Part shown: piece by piece, positions 6,712-53,542 of the stretch
Position numbering within the stretch: position 1 is the first letter of the stretch
Layout: each line of letters starts with the position of its first letter
DNA from: Candidatus Kuenenbacteria bacterium
GTDB lineage: Bacteria; Patescibacteriota; Patescibacteriia; UBA11705; JABHMO01
Length of the DNA stretch: 64,000 nucleotides
Assembly: GCA_013202715.1 (NCBI GenBank)
Contig: JABMRF010000018.1
Span: forward strand, 14,641-78,640
Reading direction: 5' to 3'
Translations under genes and position numbers: made by a program
Notes under the pieces: generated by a model
Seen by the model: the letters and a program-made list of their open reading frames with translations, nothing else
Told to the model about the DNA's origin: nothing
Database searches by the model: none

Positions 6712-8187
6712 TTATTTCTCGGCCTTTTCTTTATCATCAGCTTTTTTAGTTTTTTTTGCAGTTTTCTTTTTCGGTTTCTCTTCTGTTTCTTCGTCTTCTT
6801 TGTCTTCTTTATTGGTCTTAGTTTTTTTCACGGTCTTTTTGGCAACCTTTTTCTTTTTTTCCTTTTTTTCTTCTTTGGTGCCTTCTTCTACAACTTTTTC
6901 TTCACTCTCTGCCTTTTCTACCTTTCCACCATCTTTAGCTTCCGATCCCTCAACCTCTTTTCCAGTATCTTGATCCTTGATACTAATTTTCCAGCCGGTT
7001 AATTTTGAAGCCAAGCGAACATTTTGTCCTGCTCGACCGATTGTGAGTGACAACTGATCAAGAGGGACAATGACAGTCGCTGTTTTTTCTTCTTCATTAG
7101 TTTCAACCTTAGTAATTTTTGCCGGCAAAAGAGAATTGGCAATAAATTTTGCTGGATCATCATCATATTCTATAATATCAATCTTTTCTCCACCAAGCTC
7201 ATTGATAATGGTTTGAATTCTAGCACCACGCTGACCAATACAAGACCCAATAGGATCAATATTTTCGTCCTCGGTATGAACAGCGATTTTGGTTCTGCTT
7301 CCGGCCTCACGAGAAATACCCTTGATTACAATTGTACCGTTGGAAATTTCTGGAATTTCCAGCGTAAATAAATTTTCTACGATTGCCGGATGAGCGCGAG
7401 AAACAATAATTTCCGGACCACGCGTTGTGAGTGTAACACTTACCAAGTAAACTTTTACGCGCGCACCAACCTTGTGCCGTTCGTTCCGTATTTGTTCACT
7501 TGGAGGAAGAATCGCTGCAAATTTTTCCAGATCAATAATAATATTTGGTCCGTCAAATTTTTGTACCATACCGGTCAAAATTTCTCCTTCTCTTTCTTTG
7601 TATTCCAGATAAATCACATTGCGCTCGGCTTCGCGAAGACGCTGAATAATAACCTGTTTAGCAGTTTGTGCCGCCATTCGGCCAAATTCGCCAGGAATTT
7701 CCAAAGCCGTTTTCACAAAATCACCAATCTTGTATGATTTTTTTATTGCTTTCGCATCTACCTCCTGAATTTCTGTTCGCGGGTTGAAATGCCTTTTTTC
7801 TTCTTCGTCTTCTGCTCCCTCCTCTTTTGGTGCTTCAGATTCTCTTGCCGCTCGAAGCTCTTCATCTTTTTCCTCACGAATTCTCTTTAGTTCCTCAGCG
7901 GTAATTTCACCGCTAGCAATTTTTTCTTTTATCTCTTCTCTTTCTTTTCGAATTTTTTCTAGCTCCTCCAATTCTTCCGGAGTCAAATCCTCTACAACTT
8001 CTTTTAAATCAAAAACCTTTGTACCGCTGGTTTCCAAATCAAATTCAGCAACAACGTTTTGAGTTTTGTCGCCAAAATCTTTTCGATAAGCTGCCGCTAG
8101 TGCGGAATTAATTGTTTCCAAAACATCCTCTTCAGACAATCCCTTTTCTGCACAAATTTGTTTAATCACTTGTTTGATATTATCCAT
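6712..8187 (-). CDS. nusA: transcription termination/antitermination factor NusA
   Basis: N-terminal NusA domain, S1 domain and two KH domains are recognisable. An acidic insertion (EELEELEKIRKEREE...) and a long K/E-rich C-terminal tail are present. Confidence 0.9.
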   Translation of the reverse strand: MDNIKQVIKQICAEKGLSEEDVLETINSALAAAYRKDFGDKTQNVVAEFDLETSGTKVFDLKEVVEDLTPEELEELEKIRKEREEIKEKIASGEITAEELKRIREEKDEELRAARESEAPKEEGAEDEEEKRHFNPRTEIQEVDAKAIKKSYKIGDFVKTALEIPGEFGRMAAQTAKQVIIQRLREAERNVIYLEYKEREGEILTGMVQKFDGPNIIIDLEKFAAILPPSEQIRNERHKVGARVKVYLVSVTLTTRGPEIIVSRAHPAIVENLFTLEIPEISNGTIVIKGISREAGSRTKIAVHTEDENIDPIGSCIGQRGARIQTIINELGGEKIDIIEYDDDPAKFIANSLLPAKITKVETNEEEKTATVIVPLDQLSLTIGRAGQNVRLASKLTGWKISIKDQDTGKEVEGSEAKDGGKVEKAESEEKVVEEGTKEEKKEKKKKVAKKTVKKTKTNKEDKEDEETEEKPKKKTAKKTKKADDKEKAEK

Positions 8188-8334
8188 ATTAATTGAGTAC
8201 AGATAAATACTGCTTATTTTTATCAGTATACCTGTACGATAAGTATTAATTTGCTCCTAAAAAATGCTAGTTTAATTATCATAAACTAGCTTGCTTTGAC
8301 TATAGCATGTTTTATGAAACGTGTCAAAATTTAA

Positions 8335-8480
8335 AGGACAAGAATCAAGGAGCAAAGAGCAAAGCAAGGTCAAAGCATAAAGATAAAAGCATAAAGAATT
8401 TCCGGTTATCTGCTTTTTAGTCCTTATCCCCCTCCTATTGATCTTTCCTTGACCTTTGACCTTTGCCCCTTGCCCTTCCT
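8335..8480. repeat. palindromic word-repeat element (caaag/ctttg words)
   Basis: Left arm gcaaagagcaaagcaaggtcaaagcataaag, right arm ctttccttgacctttgacctttgcc. Confidence 0.55.
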
Positions 8481-8560
8481 GCATAGCAGGCTCTTGCCAA
8501 GTTCATTTATCCATGATAAGATTATAGCAGTCTAATAAATAATAAATATTCTGCACCGAA

Positions 8561-8612
8561 AGGTCATCCTGAGGTGCTTTTACGAGAATACGTAAAAGCC
8601 TCGAAGGGTGCC
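8561..8612 (+). repeat. structured hairpin repeat family G, copy 1
   Basis: Sequence tcatcctgaggtgcttttacgagaatacgtaaaagcctcgaagggtg. Related copies at 33343-33397, 33745-33806 and 33829-33886 carry compensatory stem changes (acg/cgt, atg/cat, gcg/cgc). Confidence 0.65.
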
Positions 8613-8670
8613 TTAAGACCATTAATTTTAGCCACTTCTATTAGCTAAAATTACAGAATATTTCAACATT

Positions 8671-9204
8671 ATGAATCAACATTACGAGTTGACCTACATT
8701 GTGTCAATCAAATACATTGAAGATGATCTGCAAAAGGTCATCAAGTCTGTTAATGAAGTAATTGCAAAAGCAAACGGTGAGATTACAAAAGAAACTGACC
8801 TTGGGAAACAGCGACTTGCTTATCCAATCGACCATGCTCATCAGGGAACTTATATTTCTCTTGAGTTTGATATGGAACAGGAAAAACTGCAAGAAACAAA
8901 TACTCTATTGAGATTAATGCCGGAACTACTACGACATTTGATTATTAAAAAGAAAGTTCAAACAGAAGCTGAAATCAAAAAGCAAGAAGATATTCAGGAA
9001 AAAATTAGAAAAGGAAAACAAGAAGAGCTAAAAAAACTTGAAAATGAAACTGAAGTCGGAATAAAAGCAACTGAACCTATCAAAAAGTCAGCTGACGAAA
9101 CCAAGCCAGTTGTAACCAAGAAAGAAAAACCGGCAAAAGAAAAGGTTACCTTGGAGGACTTGGACAAAAAGTTAGATGAAATTTTATCAGACGACATACT
9201 TTAA
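8671..9204 (+). CDS. rpsF: 30S ribosomal protein S6 with a K/E-rich C-terminal extension
   Basis: The ..ELTYIV...........V..........G.I...........LAYPI.....G.Y.. pattern of bS6 is present. Conserved rpsF-ssb-rpsR gene order. Confidence 0.85.
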   Translation: MNQHYELTYIVSIKYIEDDLQKVIKSVNEVIAKANGEITKETDLGKQRLAYPIDHAHQGTYISLEFDMEQEKLQETNTLLRLMPELLRHLIIKKKVQTEAEIKKQEDIQEKIRKGKQEELKKLENETEVGIKATEPIKKSADETKPVVTKKEKPAKEKVTLEDLDKKLDEILSDDIL

Positions 9205-9316
9205 AAATTAAAATGAAAAAGTAAAAACCACATACTTTAAATAGTAAATTCAAAATATTTTTATTTAATAATTTTGACTGTGGTTTTGCATTTTACATTT
9301 TACATTTAAAAACAAT

Positions 9317-9820
9317 ATGGATTTAAACAAAGCAATGCTAATCGGTCGCTTGACTCGCGATCCGGAGGGAAGAACAACACCACAAGGAACTACTGTCGCT
9401 TCATTTTCAGTAGCTACCAACTTTGTGTGGGTTGACGCAAACGGACAAAAACAAGAAAAAGTTGAATATCACAATATCGTTGCCTGGAGAAAATTGGCTG
9501 ACATTTGTACCCAGTACTTGAAAAAAGGAAGCAAGGTCTACATCGAGGGGCGACTACAAACTCGAGATTGGGAAGGCCAAGATGGTGTAAAGCGTTACAG
9601 AACGGAAGTCGTAGCAGACAACATGATCATGCTCGACAGCAAGCCACGAAGTGATTCTTCTGGTTCTGGATACAACCAGGCTCCACCTCCACAGGCAGAA
9701 GCACAACCTGTAATCCAGGTTGATCAATCACCTGTAGAAGGTACTGAGATTCCTGAGGCAAATGCTCCTACTACTAGTGGTAGTGACGATGAAATTAAAG
9801 TTGAAAACATTCCTTTTTAA
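9317..9820 (+). CDS. ssb: single-stranded DNA-binding protein
   Basis: N-terminus MLIGRLTRDPE..R.T..G...A.FS.A.N, an OB fold, a Gly/Pro-rich linker and an acidic C-terminal tail DDEIKVENIPF. Confidence 0.9.
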   Translation: MDLNKAMLIGRLTRDPEGRTTPQGTTVASFSVATNFVWVDANGQKQEKVEYHNIVAWRKLADICTQYLKKGSKVYIEGRLQTRDWEGQDGVKRYRTEVVADNMIMLDSKPRSDSSGSGYNQAPPPQAEAQPVIQVDQSPVEGTEIPEANAPTTSGSDDEIKVENIPF

Positions 9821-9927
9821 ATAAACGCGGATCCACACGGATCAAACGCGGATAATGCGGACCTAAGAAAAAACTTCTTAGTAAATTCCGTTCAATCCGC
9901 GTTATATCCGCTTAATCCGCGCCCCCT
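9821..9927. repeat. family A word-repeat element, full imperfect palindrome
   Basis: Left arm aaacgcggatccacacggatcaaacgcggataatgcgga, right arm ccgttcaatccgcgttatatccgcttaatccgcg. Confidence 0.65.
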
Positions 9928-10152
9928 ATGAAAAACAACATTCTTACAAAAGAAAGACAGTGCCATTTTTGCCAAAACGGTATCAAGGACATTGACTATA
10001 AAGAAGGAACACTTCTACGCAAGTTCACTTCTTCATATGCAAAAATTGTCCCACGCCGACGTAGCAAACTATGCGCCAAGCATCAGCGAAAAACAGCTGA
10101 GGCTATTAAGCGTGCGCGATTTATGGCTATCCTGCCATTCGTCAACAGATAA
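9928..10152 (+). CDS. rpsR: 30S ribosomal protein S18
   Basis: Contains CHFC....IDYK....L..F.S...KI.PRR.S..C.K.QR....AIKRAR..A.LP. Confidence 0.85.
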   Translation: MKNNILTKERQCHFCQNGIKDIDYKEGTLLRKFTSSYAKIVPRRRSKLCAKHQRKTAEAIKRARFMAILPFVNR

Positions 10153-10164
10153 ATTAAAGTATTA

Positions 10165-10262
10165 TATTTTGTAATACATGATCTACATGATTTACTACTG
10201 ATCTACGTGACGTATGTAACTTTTTATCAGTAGATCATGTAGAAAATCAGTAGATCAAGTAT
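10165..10262. repeat. family B word-repeat element (gatctac/cagtag)
   Basis: Contains atacatgatctacatgatttactactgatctacgtgac...tcagtagatcatgtagaaaatcagtagatcaag. Confidence 0.6.
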
Positions 10263-10266
10263 TTTT

Positions 10267-10830
10267 ATGCTAGACATTTCACAAATCCGTCTAGGAACCG
10301 TAGTAAAGCACGACAACGAACCATACGTTGTTACTTCTTGTGCTCAAAAACAGGTTGGCCGAGGTGGATCAATCAAAGTAATAAAAATCAAAAACCTAAT
10401 TTCCGGAAAAGTCTTGGAAATGACAATTCAGGGAAACACAAAAATGGCAGAAGCGGATTTATCCAGAACAAAAGCAACCTTTTTATATACTGAAGGAGGT
10501 GAGTCTCATTTTATGGACTCAGAATCCTATGAACAGTTCAGTTTGGAAAAAGAAAATGTTGGCGATGGAATCAACTATCTAAAAGACGGAACTGACGTTA
10601 CTGTTTTGAATTTTGAAAGCAAACCGGTTTCAGTTCAAGTCCCGCCAAAGGTAAAGCTCGAAGTGGTTGAATCTCCTCCGGGCGTTCGCGGCGACTCAGT
10701 TGGGACTGCCACAAAAACAATCAAGCTTGAAACTGGATTTGAAGTCAATGCTCCACTTTTCATCAAGAAAGGCGACTCAGTTATTATTAATACTGACACA
10801 GGGCAATACGTTGAGAGAGCGAAGAGTTAA
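10267..10830 (+). CDS. efp: elongation factor P
   Basis: Aligns along its full length to E. coli EF-P. The loop equivalent to KPGKG reads QVGRGGS, so the site modified as Lys34 in E. coli is an Arg here. Confidence 0.9.
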   Translation: MLDISQIRLGTVVKHDNEPYVVTSCAQKQVGRGGSIKVIKIKNLISGKVLEMTIQGNTKMAEADLSRTKATFLYTEGGESHFMDSESYEQFSLEKENVGDGINYLKDGTDVTVLNFESKPVSVQVPPKVKLEVVESPPGVRGDSVGTATKTIKLETGFEVNAPLFIKKGDSVIINTDTGQYVERAKS

Positions 10831-24960: not shown

Positions 24961-25085
24961 GATTCACCTCCTGATTAACGTCAAAACACAAACCTCAAAG
25001 AACAAGTAACATAGAAGGTTAACATAGTATTTTTATATTGTCAATAGTTGGACTAAATTTACTCAACATGTTAGAATTTATATAT

Positions 25086-26074: not shown

Positions 26075-26232
26075 TTCGACCTCCATTAAATTTTCAAAAT
26101 TCATTTACCAATACTTACAAGTATAGCATACTCTTAACTTTTTGTCAATCGTACTTCCTCGTTTTTATTCAATTTTAGCTAAAAGATGATTCTTATTCAT
26201 CAGTATATCAGTATAATCAGTAATCAATTCTT

Positions 26233-35881: not shown

Positions 35882-36748
35882 CTACTTCTCAAAATATTTT
35901 AGTGTCGAAGAAATGACCGAATACCCAAGTTTCTTTTTTATATTTTCAATTTTATCGCCTTTTTTAATTAAATTAATCGCATAAGTGTGACGCAATGTTT
36001 GAGGCGTTACTTTTTTTTCTATGTCTGCAACTTGCGCATATTTTTTTACAATTCTCTCCACACTACGAGGTGTTAATGCTTTTGGTTTTCGCGCGTGCAA
36101 CGCTCTATCGTGACCGATAAATAAATATTCGTTATCAACCTTTTTTCGAAATTTAATATATTGCTGTAGCCAATGTTTGGCTTGATTTGTTAAAGTAATT
36201 TTTCTTTTTGCGGACATTATTAAACCTTTTTTCAAATCTAAATCATGGATTGTCAACCTGGCAACTTCAGACACTTTGAGCCCTGTACAGTATAGTAATT
36301 CCAAAATTGCTCGGTCTCGTGCTTGAAATAATTTGTGTTGTTTGACTAATATAGGGGCGCCAAACAAGTCCTGAATCTCTGGCACTTCTAAATACTCGAC
36401 TTTTGTTTGTACCAGTCTTGGTAGTTTAACTTTTTTCGGAGAAAGACTGTTGATCTTTTCTGTTTCCAAATATTTTAAATAATTTCTAAGTGCAATTAAA
36501 TGATAGGTCTGGGTATTTAATTTTAATTTTGCTTTTTTGACGGAGCTTTCGATTTTATCCAGCCAGAGCCGATATCTTTTGACAACTTGCTCAGTAATTT
36601 TTTCCGGATCTGAAATCTTTTTCTTTTTTGCCCAACATGAAAACCGGCGCAAATAAAAATCGTAATTTCTAACTGTGCGTAGAGAACGTTTTTTCTTGTT
36701 TTCCAAATCTTCAAGAAAATCGGTGATTAATGTATTTATTGTTGCCAT
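35882..36748 (-). CDS. tyrosine site-specific recombinase (XerC/XerD/integrase family)
   Basis: N-terminal SAM-like domain. C-terminal catalytic region ..ARDRAILELLYCTGLKVSEV..H.LRHTYAINL...G....I...LGYS.ISSTLKYFE contains the R..HxxR..Y residues. Confidence 0.75.
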   Translation of the reverse strand: MATINTLITDFLEDLENKKKRSLRTVRNYDFYLRRFSCWAKKKKISDPEKITEQVVKRYRLWLDKIESSVKKAKLKLNTQTYHLIALRNYLKYLETEKINSLSPKKVKLPRLVQTKVEYLEVPEIQDLFGAPILVKQHKLFQARDRAILELLYCTGLKVSEVARLTIHDLDLKKGLIMSAKRKITLTNQAKHWLQQYIKFRKKVDNEYLFIGHDRALHARKPKALTPRSVERIVKKYAQVADIEKKVTPQTLRHTYAINLIKKGDKIENIKKKLGYSVISSTLKYFEK

Positions 36749-46739: not shown

Positions 46740-47067
46740 CTGCCTTAACTCGCTCTCCGCTCTCTCCTGTTTTTATTCCGGCAAACTCAAGTATTTTTTC
46801 AAGTGCCGATTGTCTCAATTTCGTAGCCTCTTCATTGTTTCCGCAAAGCTCAGACTTGCATGCCCTTTCGGTTAAACTCTTGATTTCTCGCTCCAAGAGC
46901 TTCGCTTTCCAGGGAAGCCTACTAAACTCAAGTTCCTTTTTCCTGATTTCCTTTTCGAACCTGGAATGGACCCAAACAAAATAAAGAATATTGAATCCGG
47001 GTGTCATCGCGATAACGAACTCCAGCCAATTCAATCGCATCTTTTTCATTTTTTCCGCCTCCGCCAC
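46720..47067 (-). CDS. hypothetical protein with an N-terminal TM helix
   Basis: Overlaps both of its neighbours in the operon. Confidence 0.4.
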   Translation of the reverse strand: MAEAEKMKKMRLNWLEFVIAMTPGFNILYFVWVHSRFEKEIRKKELEFSRLPWKAKLLEREIKSLTERACKSELCGNNEEATKLRQSALEKILEFAGIKTGESGERVKAVGEQND

Positions 47068-47303
47068 TCGTCACTGCCAGTTGTTTTATCAACATCTTTT
47101 CGAATTTCATTGGCAGATGCCCAGGCATCCCTGTTCATTTCATCAGTTCTCTCGATTAAATCCTCAACGTGCCCAAACTGCCTTTGATCGTGAGCATGTC
47201 GCTTTTGGAGTTCTTTCTTAACTTTATTGGCCCAGATCTTTGTCGCAACTACCAAACGAAAACGTACCGCAGCGGTTTTCAACTTTTGTCTAAAGTTTGC
47301 CAT
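47046..47303 (-). CDS. hypothetical basic protein (85 aa)
   Basis: First gene of the operon. Promoter TTGACA-17-TATTAT at rc 47340-47385. Confidence 0.4.
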   Translation of the reverse strand: MANFRQKLKTAAVRFRLVVATKIWANKVKKELQKRHAHDQRQFGHVEDLIERTDEMNRDAWASANEIRKDVDKTTGSDEWRRRKK

Positions 47304-47469
47304 TTATTTCTCCCCAAACTTGTCTAAATTTATGTTAAAGACCGATAAAACATAATATAGCATAAATCAATTTTTGTCAATAGTTACAAAAAACTGTACA
47401 ATTAAGGGGAAGTTGACTAGTTGATTGGTTAATTAGTTAATTGAATTAATTAAGTTAATTTTTTTTCTT

Positions 47470-48444
47470 GTGAAATTATATACACCGGTTCTAATAATTT
47501 GCGTGCTGATGCTCATGATTCTTACCTTTCCGGTTGTCGCCTATTCTCTGAAAGTCAGCTTTAGCTCGCAAGCACCGTTTTTTCACTGGACTCAGCCGTG
47601 GCAAGACGCGTGCGAAGAAACTTCCATTATTATGGTTGATTCTTTTTATAATCAAAAGCACCTTGACAAAGATGCTGCTAAAAAACAAATCCTAAATACT
47701 CTCAAAATTAAAGAACTGTATTTTGGGGAGAGTCTGGACGAAAACGCAAGCAAGGTTACTGAATTAATAAATAATTTTTTCTATTGGGAGGCAAAGGTTG
47801 TTCACAATGCCAGCGTTGAGCAAATAAAAAATGAACTTGATTACGGTCGCCCTGTAATTCTACCCGCCCACGCCAAGTCATTAAAAAATAAATACTTTTT
47901 AAGTAGCGGGGCAGATTATCACATGCTGGTTATTTCAGGATATGATGAAAATACACGAGAATTTATTACTCAAGACCCCGGTACAATGTACGGCAAAGAT
48001 TATCATTATTCATATGAAACAATAATTAACGCCATGCACGACTTTGTACCAAACAACAAAACAATTACCGGACAAAAGGTGGCCGTATTTACCAGTCCAA
48101 AAATTAATTTATCCGCAACGGTTGACGCTGACCACGACGGGCTCTATAAATCAGACGAAATTAAACATCAGACAAGTTTGTTCAAAAGCGATACGGACAA
48201 TGACGGGTATTCTGACTACGAGGAAGTTCAAAACGGTTATTCGCCGGTAGTTAACGAGAGCAAATTAAAAAATAACGCCTTAATCCGATCTGCAATTGAC
48301 AACAAAGTCTACTTTATTGAAAATAATACCAAGCGATATATAATTAGTCCGTCAGCTCTTGAAAAATATTGGCAATGGGGACAGATTACAACCGTTAGTG
48401 AAAAATTTATTAATCAACTAATTAACGGAGCTGAAATTAAATAA
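47470..48444 (+). CDS. secreted protein with a peptidase-C39-like domain and Ca-binding DxDxDG-type repeats
   Basis: Signal peptide or TM helix. DACEETSIIMV resembles the catalytic Cys region of Peptidase_C39_2. The C-terminal DADHDGLYKSDE...DTDNDGYSDYEE resembles thrombospondin-type-3 repeats. Confidence 0.4.
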   Translation: MKLYTPVLIICVLMLMILTFPVVAYSLKVSFSSQAPFFHWTQPWQDACEETSIIMVDSFYNQKHLDKDAAKKQILNTLKIKELYFGESLDENASKVTELINNFFYWEAKVVHNASVEQIKNELDYGRPVILPAHAKSLKNKYFLSSGADYHMLVISGYDENTREFITQDPGTMYGKDYHYSYETIINAMHDFVPNNKTITGQKVAVFTSPKINLSATVDADHDGLYKSDEIKHQTSLFKSDTDNDGYSDYEEVQNGYSPVVNESKLKNNALIRSAIDNKVYFIENNTKRYIISPSALEKYWQWGQITTVSEKFINQLINGAEIK

Positions 48445-48546
48445 TCTAAAAACTCCAATACTTGATTTCACATAATATACTGACTAACTTATTCCGCCAT
48501 ATTTCGCCTTATTCAGTATATCAATACAATCAGTAATCATTTCTTT

Positions 48547-48930
48547 ATGACTCAACTAAACGCTATCTACAAATGTAATGTTTGCGGCAACATCGTTGCC
48601 ATGGTTCATGGCGCACAAGGTATACTTGTTTGTTGCGGACAAAACATGGAATTAAAACTAGAAAATACTGAAGATGCAGCAGAGGAAAAGCATGTTCCAG
48701 TTGTTGAAAAAACTGACAAGGGCCTGAAAGTTAAAATAGGAGAGGTTCCTCATCCAATGGAAGCCGAACATTATATTGAATGGATTGAAGTTTTGGCTAA
48801 TGGAAAATCATACCGACAATTCTTGAATCCAGGTGAAGCGCCGGAAGCTGAATTTTGTATCGAAGCTGAAAAGTTTGAAGTGAGAGAGTATTGTAATCTA
48901 CATGGACTCTGGAGGGCTACTAATTACTAA
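48547..48930 (+). CDS. dfx: desulfoferrodoxin (2Fe superoxide reductase)
   Basis: N-terminal desulforedoxin motif CNVCGNIV...CCG. C-terminal neelaredoxin ligands are present (..H.PV....H....EH.I.WI...........C..H). Confidence 0.85.
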
Positions 48931-48959
48931 TCTGCTACGAATCTACTAATTGCTACTAA

Positions 48960-48995
48960 TGAAAAGTCCGCTCCGGTTTAGGAGCGGGCTTTGTT
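48960..48995 (+). terminator. dfx terminator
   Basis: Sequence aaaagtccgctccggtttaggagcgggctttgtt. Confidence 0.6.
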
Positions 48996-49061
48996 ATTGT
49001 GATCACCTTGAAATTTTTGAATCTGTCCAAACTACAGGACGGTGATAAATCAGAGATGACC

Positions 49062-50279
49062 TTACTCGAGGTCCTTAATGAAATCAATAAGCGCTGTTTC
49101 AAACTCCGTATCCTGAATTCGGATATCACAGAGTTCGGCGAAAACAAGTGAATCCTTGTATGGCTCCCATCCGCCAGGGATTATCATCCCGGCCCCATTG
49201 AGGTACGCGTCCCACAAAAAGCTTGAAGCTCGGTCATAGTCATTATTTGCGCACGGATTCCCTGCAGATACGGCCCAACCAATACCTTTATTATGGTGGT
49301 AAACTTCTTTATAATTGTGGCACTGGAACCACTGACCTTCACCGTACTTATAAACGGCTACTCCAGCGTTACTCTTGTTCGCCACCACAGCATCCCAAGT
49401 ACTGCCAGTTTCTACTCTACCCGGCTTCCAGTCGGGTAGTACCTGGTGAGTATAAATCTTTTCTTTTGGAATACCTGCCCACCAGAACCAATAAACTTCA
49501 GACTGCACATAATCAGTAACTACCTGCTGCCTAAATTTTATCCAAAGATCCCAATGGTTGGCTCCTTCTCTCCTAGGAGGTCCGAAACCATATTGCTCTT
49601 GAAAAGCTTCTACCATACCAGGTTCGTATCCTGCTAAGCCATTTTCATTCTTACGAGGGAAAGAACTTTCCGCGCTGGTAGTTATGCCCGCGAAAAGATC
49701 CGGGTACTCATCATTGAACTGACTCAGGAGGATTGCTACCTCGCGAATATTTCTTTCTCTGTAATACCAGACTTGTTCGGTATATGGAGAAAGAGAGAGG
49801 AAAGTAAAATCCTCATAACCGTCTCCCAAATCGGAAGAAACTGTGTCGTCTGCGTACCACATCACGTTTTCTGGAGATTGTTTAAGATAGTCCAGAAGAT
49901 CGCCACCACCCCTGCCACTACCAGACTGTGTAGCCAATAAAATAATAGCAAAGGGCGTGTTCGTTTCCACGGACAGCTGAAATATTTTATTCAACCTCTC
50001 AGGATTTAACCGATAATCCTTTTCATACCCGTAAGCATCCTCTGCTATTGGCCGAATCATTTCAGTGAAACCAACCCTAATGTTTTCTCCACCAACACCA
50101 AAGGTCTGCTTGAACTCCTTCATACTTTGCAAGTTCTCTTCGTGGCTTCTGTCTACCGCGTTGTCAAACCCGATAAAGACACCAAAATTGGGATCCGTAA
50201 TATTGAGGTTGTCGCAATTTTCATTACAACCTGCCCCAATTAACACTAAAACAATCAAGATCATCCGGTAATAATTCAT
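49062..50279 (-). CDS. lipoprotein, hypothetical (higher GC; looks like inserted cargo)
   Basis: Signal peptide plus lipobox LIGAGC. Promoter TTGACA-17-TATACT at rc 50330-50375. 405 aa. Confidence 0.55.
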   Translation of the reverse strand: MNYYRMILIVLVLIGAGCNENCDNLNITDPNFGVFIGFDNAVDRSHEENLQSMKEFKQTFGVGGENIRVGFTEMIRPIAEDAYGYEKDYRLNPERLNKIFQLSVETNTPFAIILLATQSGSGRGGGDLLDYLKQSPENVMWYADDTVSSDLGDGYEDFTFLSLSPYTEQVWYYRERNIREVAILLSQFNDEYPDLFAGITTSAESSFPRKNENGLAGYEPGMVEAFQEQYGFGPPRREGANHWDLWIKFRQQVVTDYVQSEVYWFWWAGIPKEKIYTHQVLPDWKPGRVETGSTWDAVVANKSNAGVAVYKYGEGQWFQCHNYKEVYHHNKGIGWAVSAGNPCANNDYDRASSFLWDAYLNGAGMIIPGGWEPYKDSLVFAELCDIRIQDTEFETALIDFIKDLE

Positions 50280-50389
50280 TTGTAACCTCCCAAGGTTTAC
50301 ATTTTATTGTCAAAACACATACATCATCAGAATCTTACTGATAATATAGTATAGCTTAAATTTATCTTTTTGTCAATAGTTGTGGTATT

Positions 50390-50455
50390 GAAGCTGAAAA
50401 ATCTGAAGTGCGGGAGTATTGCAATCTACACGGACTTTGGAAAAGGAAAAGTTAA
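50390..50455 (+). pseudogene. truncated duplicate of the dfx 3' end (encodes ..[21 protein letters not shown])
   Basis: About 80% nucleotide identity to 48862-48930. A duplicate of the dfx terminator hairpin follows it at 50490-50525. Confidence 0.7.
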
Positions 50456-50489
50456 TTTAGTTGATTAAGAGATTAAGCGAATTTTAAAA

Positions 50490-50525
50490 ATTAAAAAAAC
50501 CGCTCCTGTTTAGGAGCGGACTGCC
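50490..50525 (+). terminator. duplicate copy of the dfx terminator
   Basis: Sequence aaaaaaaccgctcctgtttaggagcggactg. Confidence 0.6.
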
Positions 50526-50563
50526 TGCCGAAGCTCAGTAGAGCGAAGGCAGGTCTTTGGTTT

Positions 50564-51502
50564 CTATCTACCGCCCTTGAAGACAATAGACCCGAGCAAT
50601 GCATGCATACAAGCAGTCATTTCGGAGATCACAGTTGAAGTCTGACCAAAATCAAAATTGACAAAATCGCAGAGCATGACAATCTTCCTGTACGCAGGAT
50701 TGAGTTCTTTCCGCTCAGCGTCTATTGGCAATAAAATGTCTCTGATCTCATTTTCATCGAATAACGTTAAATCTTCTCTGGTCTCTGAGTCTCCCAAATC
50801 ACTCCACTCAGGAATGTAGAAATCGTATTCTCTGTGAGTACTTAAGGTTCTCGCCTGACTGAGCAACGACTTATACAAAAAGGGAATGGCATTGTGACAC
50901 CACCTTCGGTACAAGGTAAGCAGTTCATACTGCCTACTAACCACCAGAGATTCCATGAGCTGAACTTCGTCCAGTCGCGTCTGTGCCGGGAGAGAAGACC
51001 ACTCTTTTCTGCCAGGCTTGCTATTTCTATGTTGTCTAAGCAATTCACCAAAGATAGCTTTTACCTTTTTCTGATATCTCTTATTCTGGGGATACCAGGA
51101 ATGACGTAAACTCTTCTGCCAAAACTTCACTAAGGCTATCATGAAAACATGCCCAATGGAATAAGGGTTGTCTTCATTTGGTACCAGAAAACGAATTAAT
51201 ACTTGTCTGGCTTCTTCTCTCAAAGAATCAAACGGCTCACTGATATCAACTTCATCACCAATTTCCATCAAAAATTGAGTCACTTGCATTTTAAACGAAT
51301 CTTTCGTCAAACCAAAATTCAAAACTGCCTGCAAAATACCTCTGGCAGTTTCCCACGAGCCTTCCTCGTACTCTCGTCTCCAGGAAGCTAGCTCAAAATC
51401 CCTTCTCTCTTTCATGACGACCTCCACCTTTTGGCTGTCCAGTTTTTTGGACAACAGGAGTGAAAAGAGCTGCCGGCCGGGACCTTCCCGAACGACACTC
51501 AA
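50564..51502 (-). CDS. hypothetical protein, tandem paralog A
   Basis: Shares ETARGILQAVLNFG and QVLIRFLVPNE blocks with 51593..52474. Confidence 0.5.
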   Translation of the reverse strand: MSVVREGPGRQLFSLLLSKKLDSQKVEVVMKERRDFELASWRREYEEGSWETARGILQAVLNFGLTKDSFKMQVTQFLMEIGDEVDISEPFDSLREEARQVLIRFLVPNEDNPYSIGHVFMIALVKFWQKSLRHSWYPQNKRYQKKVKAIFGELLRQHRNSKPGRKEWSSLPAQTRLDEVQLMESLVVSRQYELLTLYRRWCHNAIPFLYKSLLSQARTLSTHREYDFYIPEWSDLGDSETREDLTLFDENEIRDILLPIDAERKELNPAYRKIVMLCDFVNFDFGQTSTVISEMTACMHALLGSIVFKGGR

Positions 51503-51592: not shown

Positions 51593-52474
51593 CTATGCAC
51601 TTGCGACAATTGTTCCGAGAAGAGCAAAAATACAAGCTACCAATGGCTCCTTGCCAGATGAAACCATAGATCTGTTTGGTCGATCGTAAGAATTTGCCCA
51701 ATCACAAAGTGTAATCATCTGTTTATAGGCCGGCAAGAAAAACGCTCTGCCTGAATCATACTCGAGCAATAAGCTTTTAATCTCGTCTTCATCAAAAAGC
51801 GAACTTGAATAATCAATCAATAACTCTAAGTGCCACTTTTCGATAACACATTTCGAGCTACTAAATTTCCCACAAAAAGAAGACCAAGTGCTTTCAGACA
51901 ATCGATGATACAGAAAAGGAAGCGCCTTCAAACAAAACACACGGGCCACCATCAATAATGCAAATTGATCTGCATTTACGAGGGCTCTCATAAACTCTAC
52001 TTCTTCTTCGACAGAGGTCCAAATAGGCTTCTGGTCAGTTTCTTTTTTATAACTTTTATGCTGGCTCATCATTGACTGACATACTGCCTTTACTTTTTCT
52101 TGATAATTTTTACGTCCATAATGGCTGTGTCTCTCGTGCCGAGCCCAGAACTTAATCAACTTTTTCAATAAAAACTGGCTCACCAAAAACATTTCTTTTT
52201 CATTTGGCACAACAAATCGAATCAAGACTTCTCTGGCTTCTTGCCTTAGAGATTCGATAGGTTCACTGATGTTCACTTCATCACCAATGATCAGCAGACG
52301 ATCAACAATCAGATGCCGTTGCCCGCCATACTTACCGTGAAATGGATGATCTTTCCCAATATTCAAGACAGCTTGCAGAATTCCGCGCGCCGCTTCAGGT
52401 GGACTACGATCGTAATCCCTTATCCACCCAGGAACTGTCAAGTTTTCCCTTCTACTCATAATTCCCTCCAACAT
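51593..52474 (-). CDS. hypothetical protein, tandem paralog B
   Basis: Contains EAARGILQAVLNIG and EVLIRFVVPNE. Confidence 0.5.
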   Translation of the reverse strand: MLEGIMSRRENLTVPGWIRDYDRSPPEAARGILQAVLNIGKDHPFHGKYGGQRHLIVDRLLIIGDEVNISEPIESLRQEAREVLIRFVVPNEKEMFLVSQFLLKKLIKFWARHERHSHYGRKNYQEKVKAVCQSMMSQHKSYKKETDQKPIWTSVEEEVEFMRALVNADQFALLMVARVFCLKALPFLYHRLSESTWSSFCGKFSSSKCVIEKWHLELLIDYSSSLFDEDEIKSLLLEYDSGRAFFLPAYKQMITLCDWANSYDRPNRSMVSSGKEPLVACIFALLGTIVASA

Positions 52475-52675
52475 TGGGCTACTCAGTTTATCGAGTAGCA
52501 GGAGTCAAGGAACACATCACCAGAACCTTACTGGTGATATTTAAATTTACCTAACTTTGACTGTTTTGTCAATCTTGCCCCTCGCGTGGTTGACAAAATA
52601 GTTATAATATATAATAATAGTGAAGACATATTTGCCCATTTGATTTATCCTTTCAAATGAGCTACAATTAACCAT

Positions 52676-53044
52676 ATGAAAAAGAAAGAACTAGAAGCAA
52701 TAAAAAACAAACTGCAGGAAGAAAAAGCCAATCTTGAAGCAGAATTGAATAAATTTGCCAAACAAAATCCTCATAATCCAGAAGATTACAAAGCGCAGTT
52801 TGAGGACCTTGGTGATGACGAAACAGAGAACGCCTCTGAAGTTGTTAAATTTGGTTTAAATTTGACCCTGGAAAAAACTTTGGAAAAATCTTTGCGTGAC
52901 GTGAACAAAGCATTGGATCGAATAACAAAAAAAGATTTCGGTATTTGTAAATATTGCAGTCAAGAAATTAACGCCAAAAGATTACTGGCCAGACCAACAT
53001 CAGGTGCGTGTATTACTTGTAAAACAAGATTAAAATCGCTTTAG
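52676..53044 (+). CDS. DksA/TraR-family C4 zinc-finger protein
   Basis: N-terminal coiled coil. C-terminus carries C-x2-C-x17-C-x2-C (CKYCSQEI...CITCKT). Confidence 0.65.
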   Translation: MKKKELEAIKNKLQEEKANLEAELNKFAKQNPHNPEDYKAQFEDLGDDETENASEVVKFGLNLTLEKTLEKSLRDVNKALDRITKKDFGICKYCSQEINAKRLLARPTSGACITCKTRLKSL

Positions 53045-53074: not shown

Positions 53075-53542
53075 ATGAAATATATCTTAACAACTTTCGC
53101 GATTTTAACCGGTACCGTAATCATTGTTCTTGATCAATTAACAAAATTTATTATCAAACAAAAAGTCCCCGGACAAGGGATTTTTGTTGTTAATGGAACT
53201 TTTCTTCAAATAAAACTTGAACAACTGGAAAATAAATTTATCGCCTTTGGGTTAGCTATTCCAGAAACTTTAATCTACCTGTTTTTGACCATAATTGTTT
53301 TAGCTCTATTGTATTTGTTATATAAGTCGATTCATGAAAAACATCTTAGCTGGACAATTGTTTTATCAATAATCCTCGGTGGCGCTGTTTCAAACATAAT
53401 CGATCGAATCTGGCACGGCGCTGTTCTGGACTTTTTCTCAATTTCATTTTATAATTTCACCTGGCCAAGTTTCAATCTGGCCGACGTAGCAATTGTAGTT
53501 GCAGTTATTATTTTAATAATTAAAGAACTAAAAAAAAGTTAA
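53075..53542 (+). CDS. lspA: lipoprotein signal peptidase (signal peptidase II)
   Basis: Four TM helices. Contains ..VLDQLTK.. and the catalytic-Asp region FNLADVAIVV. Confidence 0.8.
   Translation: MKYILTTFAILTGTVIIVLDQLTKFIIKQKVPGQGIFVVNGTFLQIKLEQLENKFIAFGLAIPETLIYLFLTIIVLALLYLLYKSIHEKHLSWTIVLSIILGGAVSNIIDRIWHGAVLDFFSISFYNFTWPSFNLADVAIVVAVIILIIKELKKS

Follow-up and report, generated by a model that had tools for sequence, protein, structure and literature searches.

An orphaned desulfoferrodoxin gene end in a variable accessory-gene interval of a Candidatus Kuenenbacteria genome

Introduction

What does a direct repeat on either side of a gene record? The question arises in a Candidatus Kuenenbacteria bacterium (Patescibacteria, or candidate phyla radiation; CPR), the sequence of which is metagenome-assembled. 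The window, meaning the whole stretch of DNA analysed here, comprises 64,000 nucleotides (nt) of contig JABMRF010000018.1 (positions 14,641 to 78,640; assembly GCA_013202715.1). In this window the 3' end of dfx, the gene for desulfoferrodoxin, recurs 1.5 kb further on, beyond a gene encoding a predicted lipoprotein of 405 amino acids (aa). We refer to the intact gene as dfx_A, to its end as copy A, and to the second end as copy B. An initial annotation, made from the sequence, read the repeat as the footprint of a gene-sized insertion, or of duplication followed by deletion. Our analysis points elsewhere. Copy B is probably the relic of a second, once-functional dfx end, and not a target duplication that has drifted. 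We conclude that the locus is an ordinary recombination scar, at a place where accessory genes accumulate, rather than the footprint of a fresh insertion. It reveals no new mechanism.

Results

The repeat consists of two conserved blocks

The upstream gene, dfx_A, is intact. Its product is 100% identical to an NCBI protein named desulfoferrodoxin [Candidatus Kuenenbacteria bacterium], and matches Pfam families Desulfoferrod_N (PF06397; E 1.4e-13) and Desulfoferrodox (PF01880; E 6.5e-22). Hence, it has both the desulforedoxin-like N-terminal domain and the full superoxide reductase (SOR) domain of a desulfoferrodoxin (2Fe-SOR). A direct repeat of the dfx_A end is indeed present at the far side of the lipoprotein gene. 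It is not the continuous match of about 130 base pairs (bp), at some 80% identity, that had been described. Instead, there are two blocks, of 57 and 29 nt, each 86% identical between copies (Table 1). Block 1 holds the last conserved codons of dfx. Block 2 holds a hairpin; the stem-loops of the two copies are CCGCTCCgGTTTAGGAGCGG and CCGCTCCtGTTTAGGAGCGG. Between the blocks are 55 nt in copy A versus 59 nt in copy B. These align with 35/63 identities, counting gaps, and the similarity is insignificant (shuffle z 1.4, p 0.11). Overall, the repeat measures 134 nt in copy A and 138 nt in copy B, with 73% identity (105/143 columns) and identical runs of only 11–12 nt at most. The hairpins match at 19/20 positions. 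This 20-mer is unique to the two sites in the window, with 3 mismatches allowed, and its chance expectation is 0.02.

Copy B reads as a dfx end, as first proposed. It is detected by tblastn with the dfx protein (E 3e-7), covers residues 105–123 only, and translates in the dfx frame, which is intact. This frame has no ATG, GTG, or TTG start codon, and we therefore rejected copy B as a small open reading frame (ORF). It is no longer a gene and codes for nothing. The dfx homology starts directly upstream of the -35 box of the lipoprotein gene promoter. The junction shows possible TTGT/TGT microhomology and an extra GGT (a 3-nt indel).

With a metagenome-assembled sequence, an assembly artefact has to be considered, as does chance similarity. 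However, the copies differ at 14% of positions, and an assembler would not create such differences. Furthermore, across 16,084 nt that include both copies, an independent Logan assembly shows no difference (100% identity). The chance expectation for the hairpin, and the tblastn score of copy B, argue against coincidence. Hence, we regard artefact or chance as a negligible prospect, and the concern that the second copy is an assembly duplication falls away.

Differences between the copies are almost all synonymous

The 18 codons shared by the copies (I...W) differ at 8 nt; 7 differences are synonymous and 1 is non-synonymous (F->S). With 10.7 synonymous (S) and 43.3 non-synonymous (N) sites, the proportion of sites that differ is 0.66 for the former (pS) and 0.023 for the latter (pN). 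When full-length dfx_A is compared with dfx of three related genomes, pS is 0.54–0.64 and pN is 0.05–0.12. Since pS between the copies reaches the level found for dfx orthologues when genomes are compared, copy B is as diverged as an orthologue, and purifying selection has been equally strong.

These values bear directly on the footprint interpretation. Here, insertion of the lipoprotein gene, or tandem duplication and deletion, would have duplicated a dfx end of about 135 bp in place, and copy B would since have drifted as junk. We simulated an in situ duplicate with copy B neutral and copy A under selection, using runs with eight differences and kappa between 1 and 20. Between 0.08 and 1.2% of such runs had one amino-acid change or fewer and no stop codon (P = 0.0008–0.012). 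The synonymous divergence, at the level seen between genomes, also speaks against this scenario.

The single replacement is informative. Among the 119 nearest homologues, the position is hydrophobic in 118, with I, V, L, F, T, or M present and Ser never found. F->S is thus non-conservative, and is the sole replacement unique to copy B. With this one change, and an intact frame, copy B is little decayed. Hence, truncation, and with it the rearrangement, is recent relative to the divergence of the copies. From these codons, copy B appears to be what is left of a dfx gene that worked for almost the whole time since the copies diverged, and that lost the rest of its sequence only recently.

The two dfx ends have different 3' untranslated regions

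Among related loci, L100 encodes a desulfoferrodoxin (Dfx) 88% identical to the dfx_A product, and its dfx agrees with dfx_A at 84.8% of positions across the 5' leader and coding region. Alignment of L100 (620–735) with the window (50385–50503) by blastn gives 75.6% identity over 119 nt (E 9e-17), reaching the hairpin. The copy B spacer alone shares 39/59 identities (66%) with L100 (z 4.5; reached by 0/2000 shuffles). Judged by these alignments, the copy B spacer is orthologous to the L100 dfx 3' untranslated region (UTR). The tail encoded by copy B starts W-K, as in most homologues.

The copy A spacer resembles neither copy B nor the relatives to a significant degree. It is built from an 18-nt tandem repeat that starts inside dfx_A, encodes the tail ATNY*, and fills the 3'UTR. 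The resulting tail, RATNY, is unusual; among homologues, the endings WKA, WKS, and WKK prevail. With an L100-type spacer in copy B, and a local tandem repeat in copy A, the two dfx ends have separate histories. Separately, we note a case where slippage has rewritten the end of a conserved gene (dfx_A tail and 3'UTR, 48916–48960).

The spacers weigh further on in situ duplication. The scenario has points in its favour: exactly one gene, complete with promoter, is enclosed by the direct repeats, the hairpins agree at 19/20 positions, and the copy A spacer could have lost similarity by tandem-repeat expansion instead of by time. However, drift sufficient to give a pS of 0.66 should have erased the similarity of the copy B spacer to L100. 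In addition, a repeat of 134–138 nt far exceeds target duplications made by transposition, and we found no terminal inverted repeats or transposase. Transposon target-site duplications are about 2–15 bp and initially identical, and flank an element with terminal inverted repeats and a transposase. A transposon-type target-site duplication was rejected, given repeats of 134/138 nt at 73% identity and the lack of inverted repeats at the ends of the insert. Taken together, we consider in situ duplication improbable, and neither form of the footprint interpretation is upheld.

The dfx–dksA interval differs in every genome examined

Few close relatives are available, mostly as short contigs. The best preserved is L005, with a Dfx 89% identical to that of dfx_A and synteny with the window kept from pnp to pspC (66–83% nt identity). 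Here, dfx faces an unrelated bidirectional hairpin and a convergent gene for a 255-aa RNA_pol_A_CTD protein; dksA follows. In L101/L102 (Dfx 78% identical), rubrerythrin (Rbr) and dfx genes are followed by 117 bp, containing the dksA promoter, and then dksA. This is a true empty site, without a hairpin. The gene directly 3' of dfx in L101/L102 has 74% nt identity to the dksA-like gene in the window, for which a promoter is located at 52590–52618. The L100 contig continues past dfx with the copy B-like UTR and an A-run, and ends after the first part of a hairpin. The dfx–dksA interval is therefore different in every genome examined.

None of these relatives (L005, L100, L101/L102) has the lipoprotein gene, a gene like that for the 312-aa protein located next in the window, or a dfx fragment. 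Hence, the comparison with related genomes proposed at the outset did find an empty site, and the shared arrangement that would have spoken against recent change was not seen. Since the interval is empty in some relatives, or occupied by different genes in others, the whole dfx–dksA interval is a variable accessory-gene slot. Among 96 dfx loci fetched, a dfx fragment beside dfx occurs only in the genome studied here.

Wider searches returned little. Exact-protein look-ups with the lipoprotein, dfx, and DksA-like products retrieved no contigs other than those of the same population, all arranged alike. In a word-indexed homologue search, the lipoprotein and 312-aa protein matched nothing beyond this genome. 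A scan of genome contigs with dfx reached at most 71% identity in any relative, and the 80 loci said nothing about synteny because dfx is widely shared across bacteria and archaea. The nearest dfx matches in reference genomes include Woesearchaeota (70%). A metagenome scan with a DksA alignment, which made for poor peptide patterns, had L093 among the matches listed, with no dfx within 2 kb. Viral contigs, when scanned, contained no match to the 312-aa protein, the lipoprotein, or the hairpin.

The left side of dfx differs too. A rubrerythrin gene directly precedes dfx in all three relatives (L005, L100, and L101). By tblastn, FUR and Rbr are absent from the window, and the Rbr–dfx spacer is retained upstream of dfx_A (48445–48546). 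Hence, the left side of dfx has also been remodelled. In L005, FUR and rubrerythrin genes are found between the C39-like peptidase gene and dfx (8971–9938).

Recombination between diverged dfx alleles may explain the scar

The explanation that we favour, tentatively, is one-sided homologous and illegitimate recombination between diverged DNAs that each carried dfx. In this scheme the dfx–dksA interval would serve as a slot, where lineages carry different minus-strand accessory genes convergent on dfx. One lineage would have had dfx, a hairpin, and the convergent lipoprotein gene. Another would have had dfx with an L100-type 3'UTR, a hairpin, and the convergent genes for the 312-aa and 293-aa proteins. 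DNA of one lineage may then have recombined into the other, with a homologous joint in dfx and an illegitimate joint at 50377–50386, beside the lipoprotein gene promoter. Both cargo sets would be stacked as a result, with dfx_A intact and the end of the other dfx orphaned. Copy B would represent the last 18 conserved codons, four-codon tail, 3'UTR, and terminator of the displaced second dfx allele. Note that we infer both the recombination mechanism and which side came in.

There is precedent for such events. Orphaned 3' ends and arrays, made by homology-facilitated illegitimate recombination at a conserved anchor, have been described for type VI secretion system (T6SS) effector–immunity genes of Vibrio cholerae, and for Rhs and contact-dependent inhibition (CDI) systems (PMC5361080, which cites Prudhomme 2002, de Vries & Wackernagel 2002, and Meier & Wackernagel 2003). 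As proposed here, a conserved gene provides one-sided homology and new cargo is joined illegitimately at the other end. Similarly, the old 3' end and old cargo are displaced downstream, so that cassettes stack at one locus. There are also differences. The anchor in our case is a housekeeping-type oxidative-stress gene, not a polymorphic toxin gene. We see just one displacement, and the cargo is on the opposite strand. Lastly, the mechanism is our reading of a locus in an uncultured CPR bacterium, with no donor found.

Several observations weigh against this account. All codon and substitution statistics rest on 18 codons. At the protein level, copy B is closest to dfx_A (17/18 residues) and, among 120 homologues, only these two have IEAEK.EVREY in common. 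Such closeness also fits a paralogue born in this lineage. No mosaic breakpoint was visible in dfx_A by comparison with L100, L005, and L101, where 384 nt gives low power. Neither predicted donor, with dfx, the 18-nt repeat, hairpin A, and the lipoprotein gene, or with dfx and a gene like that for the 312-aa protein, was found in databases containing few close relatives. Finally, the hairpins are 19/20 identical although their spacers cannot be aligned, and the start of the L100 hairpin already differs. This likeness better fits a more recent common origin, or gene conversion, than lineages long separated.

Some of these points are met by a resident tandem paralogue. Here, dfx, its UTR, and its terminator would have been duplicated and both genes would long have been functional. 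Later, an insertion–deletion introducing the lipoprotein gene would have removed the leader and first five-sixths of the second dfx. This accounts for synonymous-only divergence, for copy B being closest to dfx_A at the protein level, and for conservation of both hairpins alongside an ancestral, L100-like UTR on copy B. Tandem paralogues also persist at the locus, in the form of the genes for the 312-aa and 293-aa proteins (39% identical), and two dfx genes are kept elsewhere; for example, L054 has two full dfx copies 4.6 kb apart. Conversely, syntenic relatives with visible downstream sequence (L005 and L101/L102) have no second dfx. Two events are needed, with long upkeep of a redundant gene in a streamlined genome. 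Moreover, a pS of 0.66 would put the duplication as early as the split from L005 and L101/L102. On balance, we rate a resident paralogue as unlikely, though a real contender.

A further scenario has a site-specific cassette integrating in the dfx 3' end and bringing a replacement gene end and terminator, so that the repeats are attL and attR. The model is prophage e14 of Escherichia coli K-12, which sits in icd and leaves icdC, a C-terminal pseudogene, with differences that are mainly synonymous (PMC13626634, summarising Hill, Gray & Brody 1989). In both cases the intact gene comes first, then the inserted DNA, and last a C-terminal piece of that gene, with mostly synonymous differences between the two ends. 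Hence, the geometry matches icd...e14...icdC, with the displaced fragment (copy B, 50385–50455) at the far end of the insert, and the conserved parts are exactly the functional parts, codons and hairpin. However, e14 is 15 kb long, with its own integrase and a defined att core, whereas the segment here is 1.5 kb with one gene and no recombinase. We found no integrase or mobility gene in this segment or nearby. No transposase, integrase, or phage gene was detected in or near the interval with Pfam, NCBIfam, and PHROGs. The sole tyrosine recombinase within about 12 kb (35882–36748) matches Xer recombinases and is syntenic in L005. Furthermore, the pattern does not recur, as no dfx fragment stands beside dfx at the other loci among the 96. 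The closest lipoprotein homologue (L107) has no flanking repeats, viral contigs gave nothing, and the longest identical runs between copies are just 11–12 nt. A cassette of this type is very unlikely. So, by a shade more, is its boldest form, where the blocks would be attL and attR of a minimal cassette without integrase, mobilised in trans, targeting the dfx 3' end in candidate-phyla bacteria, supplying a replacement gene end and terminator, and shuttling the glycoside hydrolase-like lipoprotein as cargo between CPR bacteria and archaea.

Recombination between diverged dfx alleles is the reading we carry forward. On this reading, the locus is a small, clean case of a streamlined, uncultured Kuenenbacteria lineage stacking accessory genes between two conserved core genes. 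The orphaned dfx end would record recombination between diverged alleles, and dfx–dksA offers a concrete locus at which to study gene flow in candidate-phyla bacteria. Coordinates of all features are in Table 1.

Table 1. Features of the dfx–dksA region, in window coordinates. A point in the strand column marks a feature listed without orientation.
Feature	Position	Strand	Remarks
C39-like peptidase gene	47470-48444	+	gene upstream of dfx_A
dfx_A, intact desulfoferrodoxin (2Fe superoxide reductase), 127 aa	48547-48930	+	ORF and Pfam
Block 1, copy A	48857-48913	+	last conserved dfx_A codons; 57 nt, 86% to copy B
A-specific spacer	48916-48960	+	18-nt tandem repeat GCTACTAATTACTAATCT, 2.5 copies; Tandem Repeats Finder (TRF)
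Block 2, copy A (hairpin A)	48962-48990	.	29 nt, 86% to copy B
Hairpin A stem-loop	48968-48987		longer form 48963-48992; dfx_A (+) and lipoprotein gene (-) converge on it
Predicted lipoprotein, 405 aa	49062-50279	-	ORF
Lipoprotein gene promoter, TTGACA-17-TATACT	50348-50376	-	promoter scan; 11/12 matches
Junction, start of copy B dfx homology	50377-50386	.	alignments; directly upstream of -35 box
Block 1, copy B	50385-50441	+	57 nt, 86% to copy A
Copy B, orphaned dfx 3' end	50385-50455	+	18 conserved codons 50387-50440, tail KRKS, stop 50453-50455
Copy B spacer	50442-50499	+	tail and 3'UTR
Block 2, copy B (hairpin B)	50494-50522	.	29 nt, 86% to copy A
Hairpin B stem-loop	50500-50519		predicted terminator on -; minus-strand sequence CCGCTCCTAAACAGGAGCGG TTTTTTTAAT
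Orphan ORF, 312 aa (283 aa in public annotation)	50564-51502	-	first of two tandem paralogues
Orphan paralogue, 293 aa	51593-52474	-
DksA/TraR-type zinc-finger gene	52676-53044	+	conserved right border of variable interval
lspA (Peptidase_A8)	53075-53542		next after dksA-like gene; then glutaredoxin-like gene, pspC

The hairpins are predicted to terminate transcription

Both hairpins are GC-rich stem-loops, flanked by A/T runs, like bidirectional terminators between convergent genes. Furthermore, an unrelated hairpin has the same role at L005. Hairpin A is terminator-like on both strands (RNA fold z -3.6 on each) and would be expected to serve dfx_A and the lipoprotein gene. It differs from a typical bidirectional terminator in having weak U-tracts on both strands; these are only moderate, so that Rho-independent features are weakly developed, and its role is a prediction from sequence. 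On the minus strand, hairpin B has an 8-bp GC-rich stem, then U7, and begins 44 nt past the stop codon of the 312-aa gene. It is a good predicted intrinsic (Rho-independent) terminator for this gene. We infer that the hairpin of a dead dfx copy has been kept because it terminates the 312/293-aa unit and shields the lipoprotein gene promoter from read-through. Accurate annotation of copy B would be as a dfx pseudogene fragment plus a predicted working terminator. A second stable hairpin (50523–50555; CCTGCC...GGCAGG, inner stem) is located between the 312-aa gene stop codon and hairpin B. The 312-aa gene is thus followed by two tandem stem-loops.

The lipoprotein gene encodes a predicted, divergent glycoside hydrolase-like barrel

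The lipoprotein ORF and its TTGACA-17-TATACT promoter are present, as first described. The N-terminus of the protein, MNYYRMILIVLVLIGAG-C18, contains a putative signal peptide ending LIGAG-C18, and by eye we take it to fit the PROSITE-type lipobox rule. Signal peptidase II (LspA) is encoded four genes away. The lipoprotein itself falls below every Pfam threshold and has no NCBIfam or PHROG match. In an exhaustive HMMER search, 53 of 1.84 billion representatives were recognised as relatives; the closest two are 48% and 47% identical. The family profile matches glycoside hydrolase (GH) family GH35/GH42 beta-galactosidases in the PDB (E 1e-8), and 6/24 homologues match Pfam Glyco_hydro_42. In an AlphaFold2 (AF2) model (pLDDT 85.8, pTM 0.87) the protein adopts a (beta/alpha)8 barrel. 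The top Foldseek matches are GH14, GH42, GH35, and GH164, with a TM (template modelling) score of about 0.6 and about 12% identity.

In clan GH-A-like hydrolases, the acid/base Glu follows beta4 and the nucleophile Glu follows beta7. The lipoprotein resembles such enzymes (GH42/GH35, GH14 beta-amylase, and GH164) in its (beta/alpha)8 fold, in profile similarity around beta4, and in E204, which is at the acid/base position and conserved in 22/23 homologues. It differs in being only about 12% identical, in falling below the Pfam threshold, and in the nucleophile, since no conserved second carboxylate (Glu/Asp, beta7 region) was found among the homologues. It also departs from the consensus of its own family at W119S, D202S, and D217G. 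Model and profile together predict a divergent glycoside hydrolase-like TIM barrel, from a rare family present in bacteria and archaea. This uncharacterised lipoprotein family, shared with archaea, merits attention.

Homologues are found in unrelated contexts. That in L107 sits between radical-SAM and methyltransferase genes, and others are named from metagenome-assembled genomes of Actinomycetota and Promethearchaeota. A full-length homologue, 47% identical, is encoded by the archaeal contig L111 (GCA_964437105.1, CAYTFL010000064.1; 1223–2539), where its neighbours are aIF2-beta, NMD3, and DUF424 genes. This homologue and the dfx matches in Woesearchaeota are a hint that CPR bacteria and small archaea may share genes. 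Given these contexts, the lipoprotein gene is accessory and, over long periods, has been mobile between lineages by horizontal transfer.

Nothing marks the lipoprotein gene as a recent arrival

The lipoprotein gene had been described as visibly higher in GC and, on the evidence of the repeat, as recent cargo. Its GC content is 0.443, versus 0.384 for the window. While this is higher than in dfx and the spacers, it is not exceptional among 65 window genes (z = +1.3; +0.9 for GC at third codon positions, GC3). Five window genes are higher in GC, and orphan genes in the window generally have higher GC3 than core genes. Hence, GC was rejected as a sign of foreign origin; the lipoprotein gene is no outlier.

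The promoter has an extended -35 element, AACTATTGACAAAAA, identical to that at 47371–47385. Its leader starts ATCAGTA (50336–50342, minus strand), a heptamer that marks other leaders here and in relatives. Promoter and leader are thus native in style, and nothing indicates recent arrival or a distant donor. Of the original claim, the accessory nature of the gene stands, given the empty site in L101/L102 and a rare, patchy family; the idea of foreignness does not, in view of its GC, promoter, and leader. Equally, the repeat neither dates the lipoprotein gene nor singles it out as cargo, for the 312-aa and 293-aa genes are just as absent from relatives and are orphans.

The similarity between promoters extends over about 40 nt of the lipoprotein gene promoter (50341–50381) and that of a gene encoding an 85-aa protein (promoter 47352–47385; gene 47046–47303, minus strand), including the 15-mer AACTATTGACAAAAA. 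Two more near-matches to AACTATTGACAAAAA, at 25035 and 26139, are also at promoter-like sites. Given these, local duplication is a disfavoured explanation for the 15-nt identity, and the 15-mer is probably the extended -35 consensus of this genome.

In the window, ATCAGTA is 3.5-fold over-represented (22 occurrences versus 6.2 +/- 2.6 expected). It forms arrays at a distance of 10–80 nt before start codons, in most cases pointing the same way as the gene that follows. Sites include 1503–1577, 10196–10252, 26199–26222, 48513–48535, and 50336–50342 in the window, 215–323 in L100, and 405–522 in L101. Linked genes include efp, tsaC/sua5, dfx, the lipoprotein gene, and a divergent pair at 1480–1598; arrays also precede dfx in relatives. 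The L101 Rbr–dfx spacer is 83% identical to the region upstream of efp in the window (10172–10270). These arrays may be a clade-specific operator or leader element.

Neighbouring genes

The 312-aa and 293-aa proteins have no Pfam, NCBIfam, or PHROG match. Among 5.8 billion proteins, homologues of the 312-aa protein are only itself and its neighbour. The two genes share a 90-nt DNA block with 79% identity (51173–51262 and 52199–52288). To the left of dfx_A, the C39-like peptidase gene has a counterpart in L003 (JGI 3300032731), where positions 7919–8893 correspond to window positions 47470–48444. This contig is 99.97% identical to the window, and gene prediction there splits the gene into two ORFs (104 and 173 aa), which suggests that a disrupting variant is present in the population.

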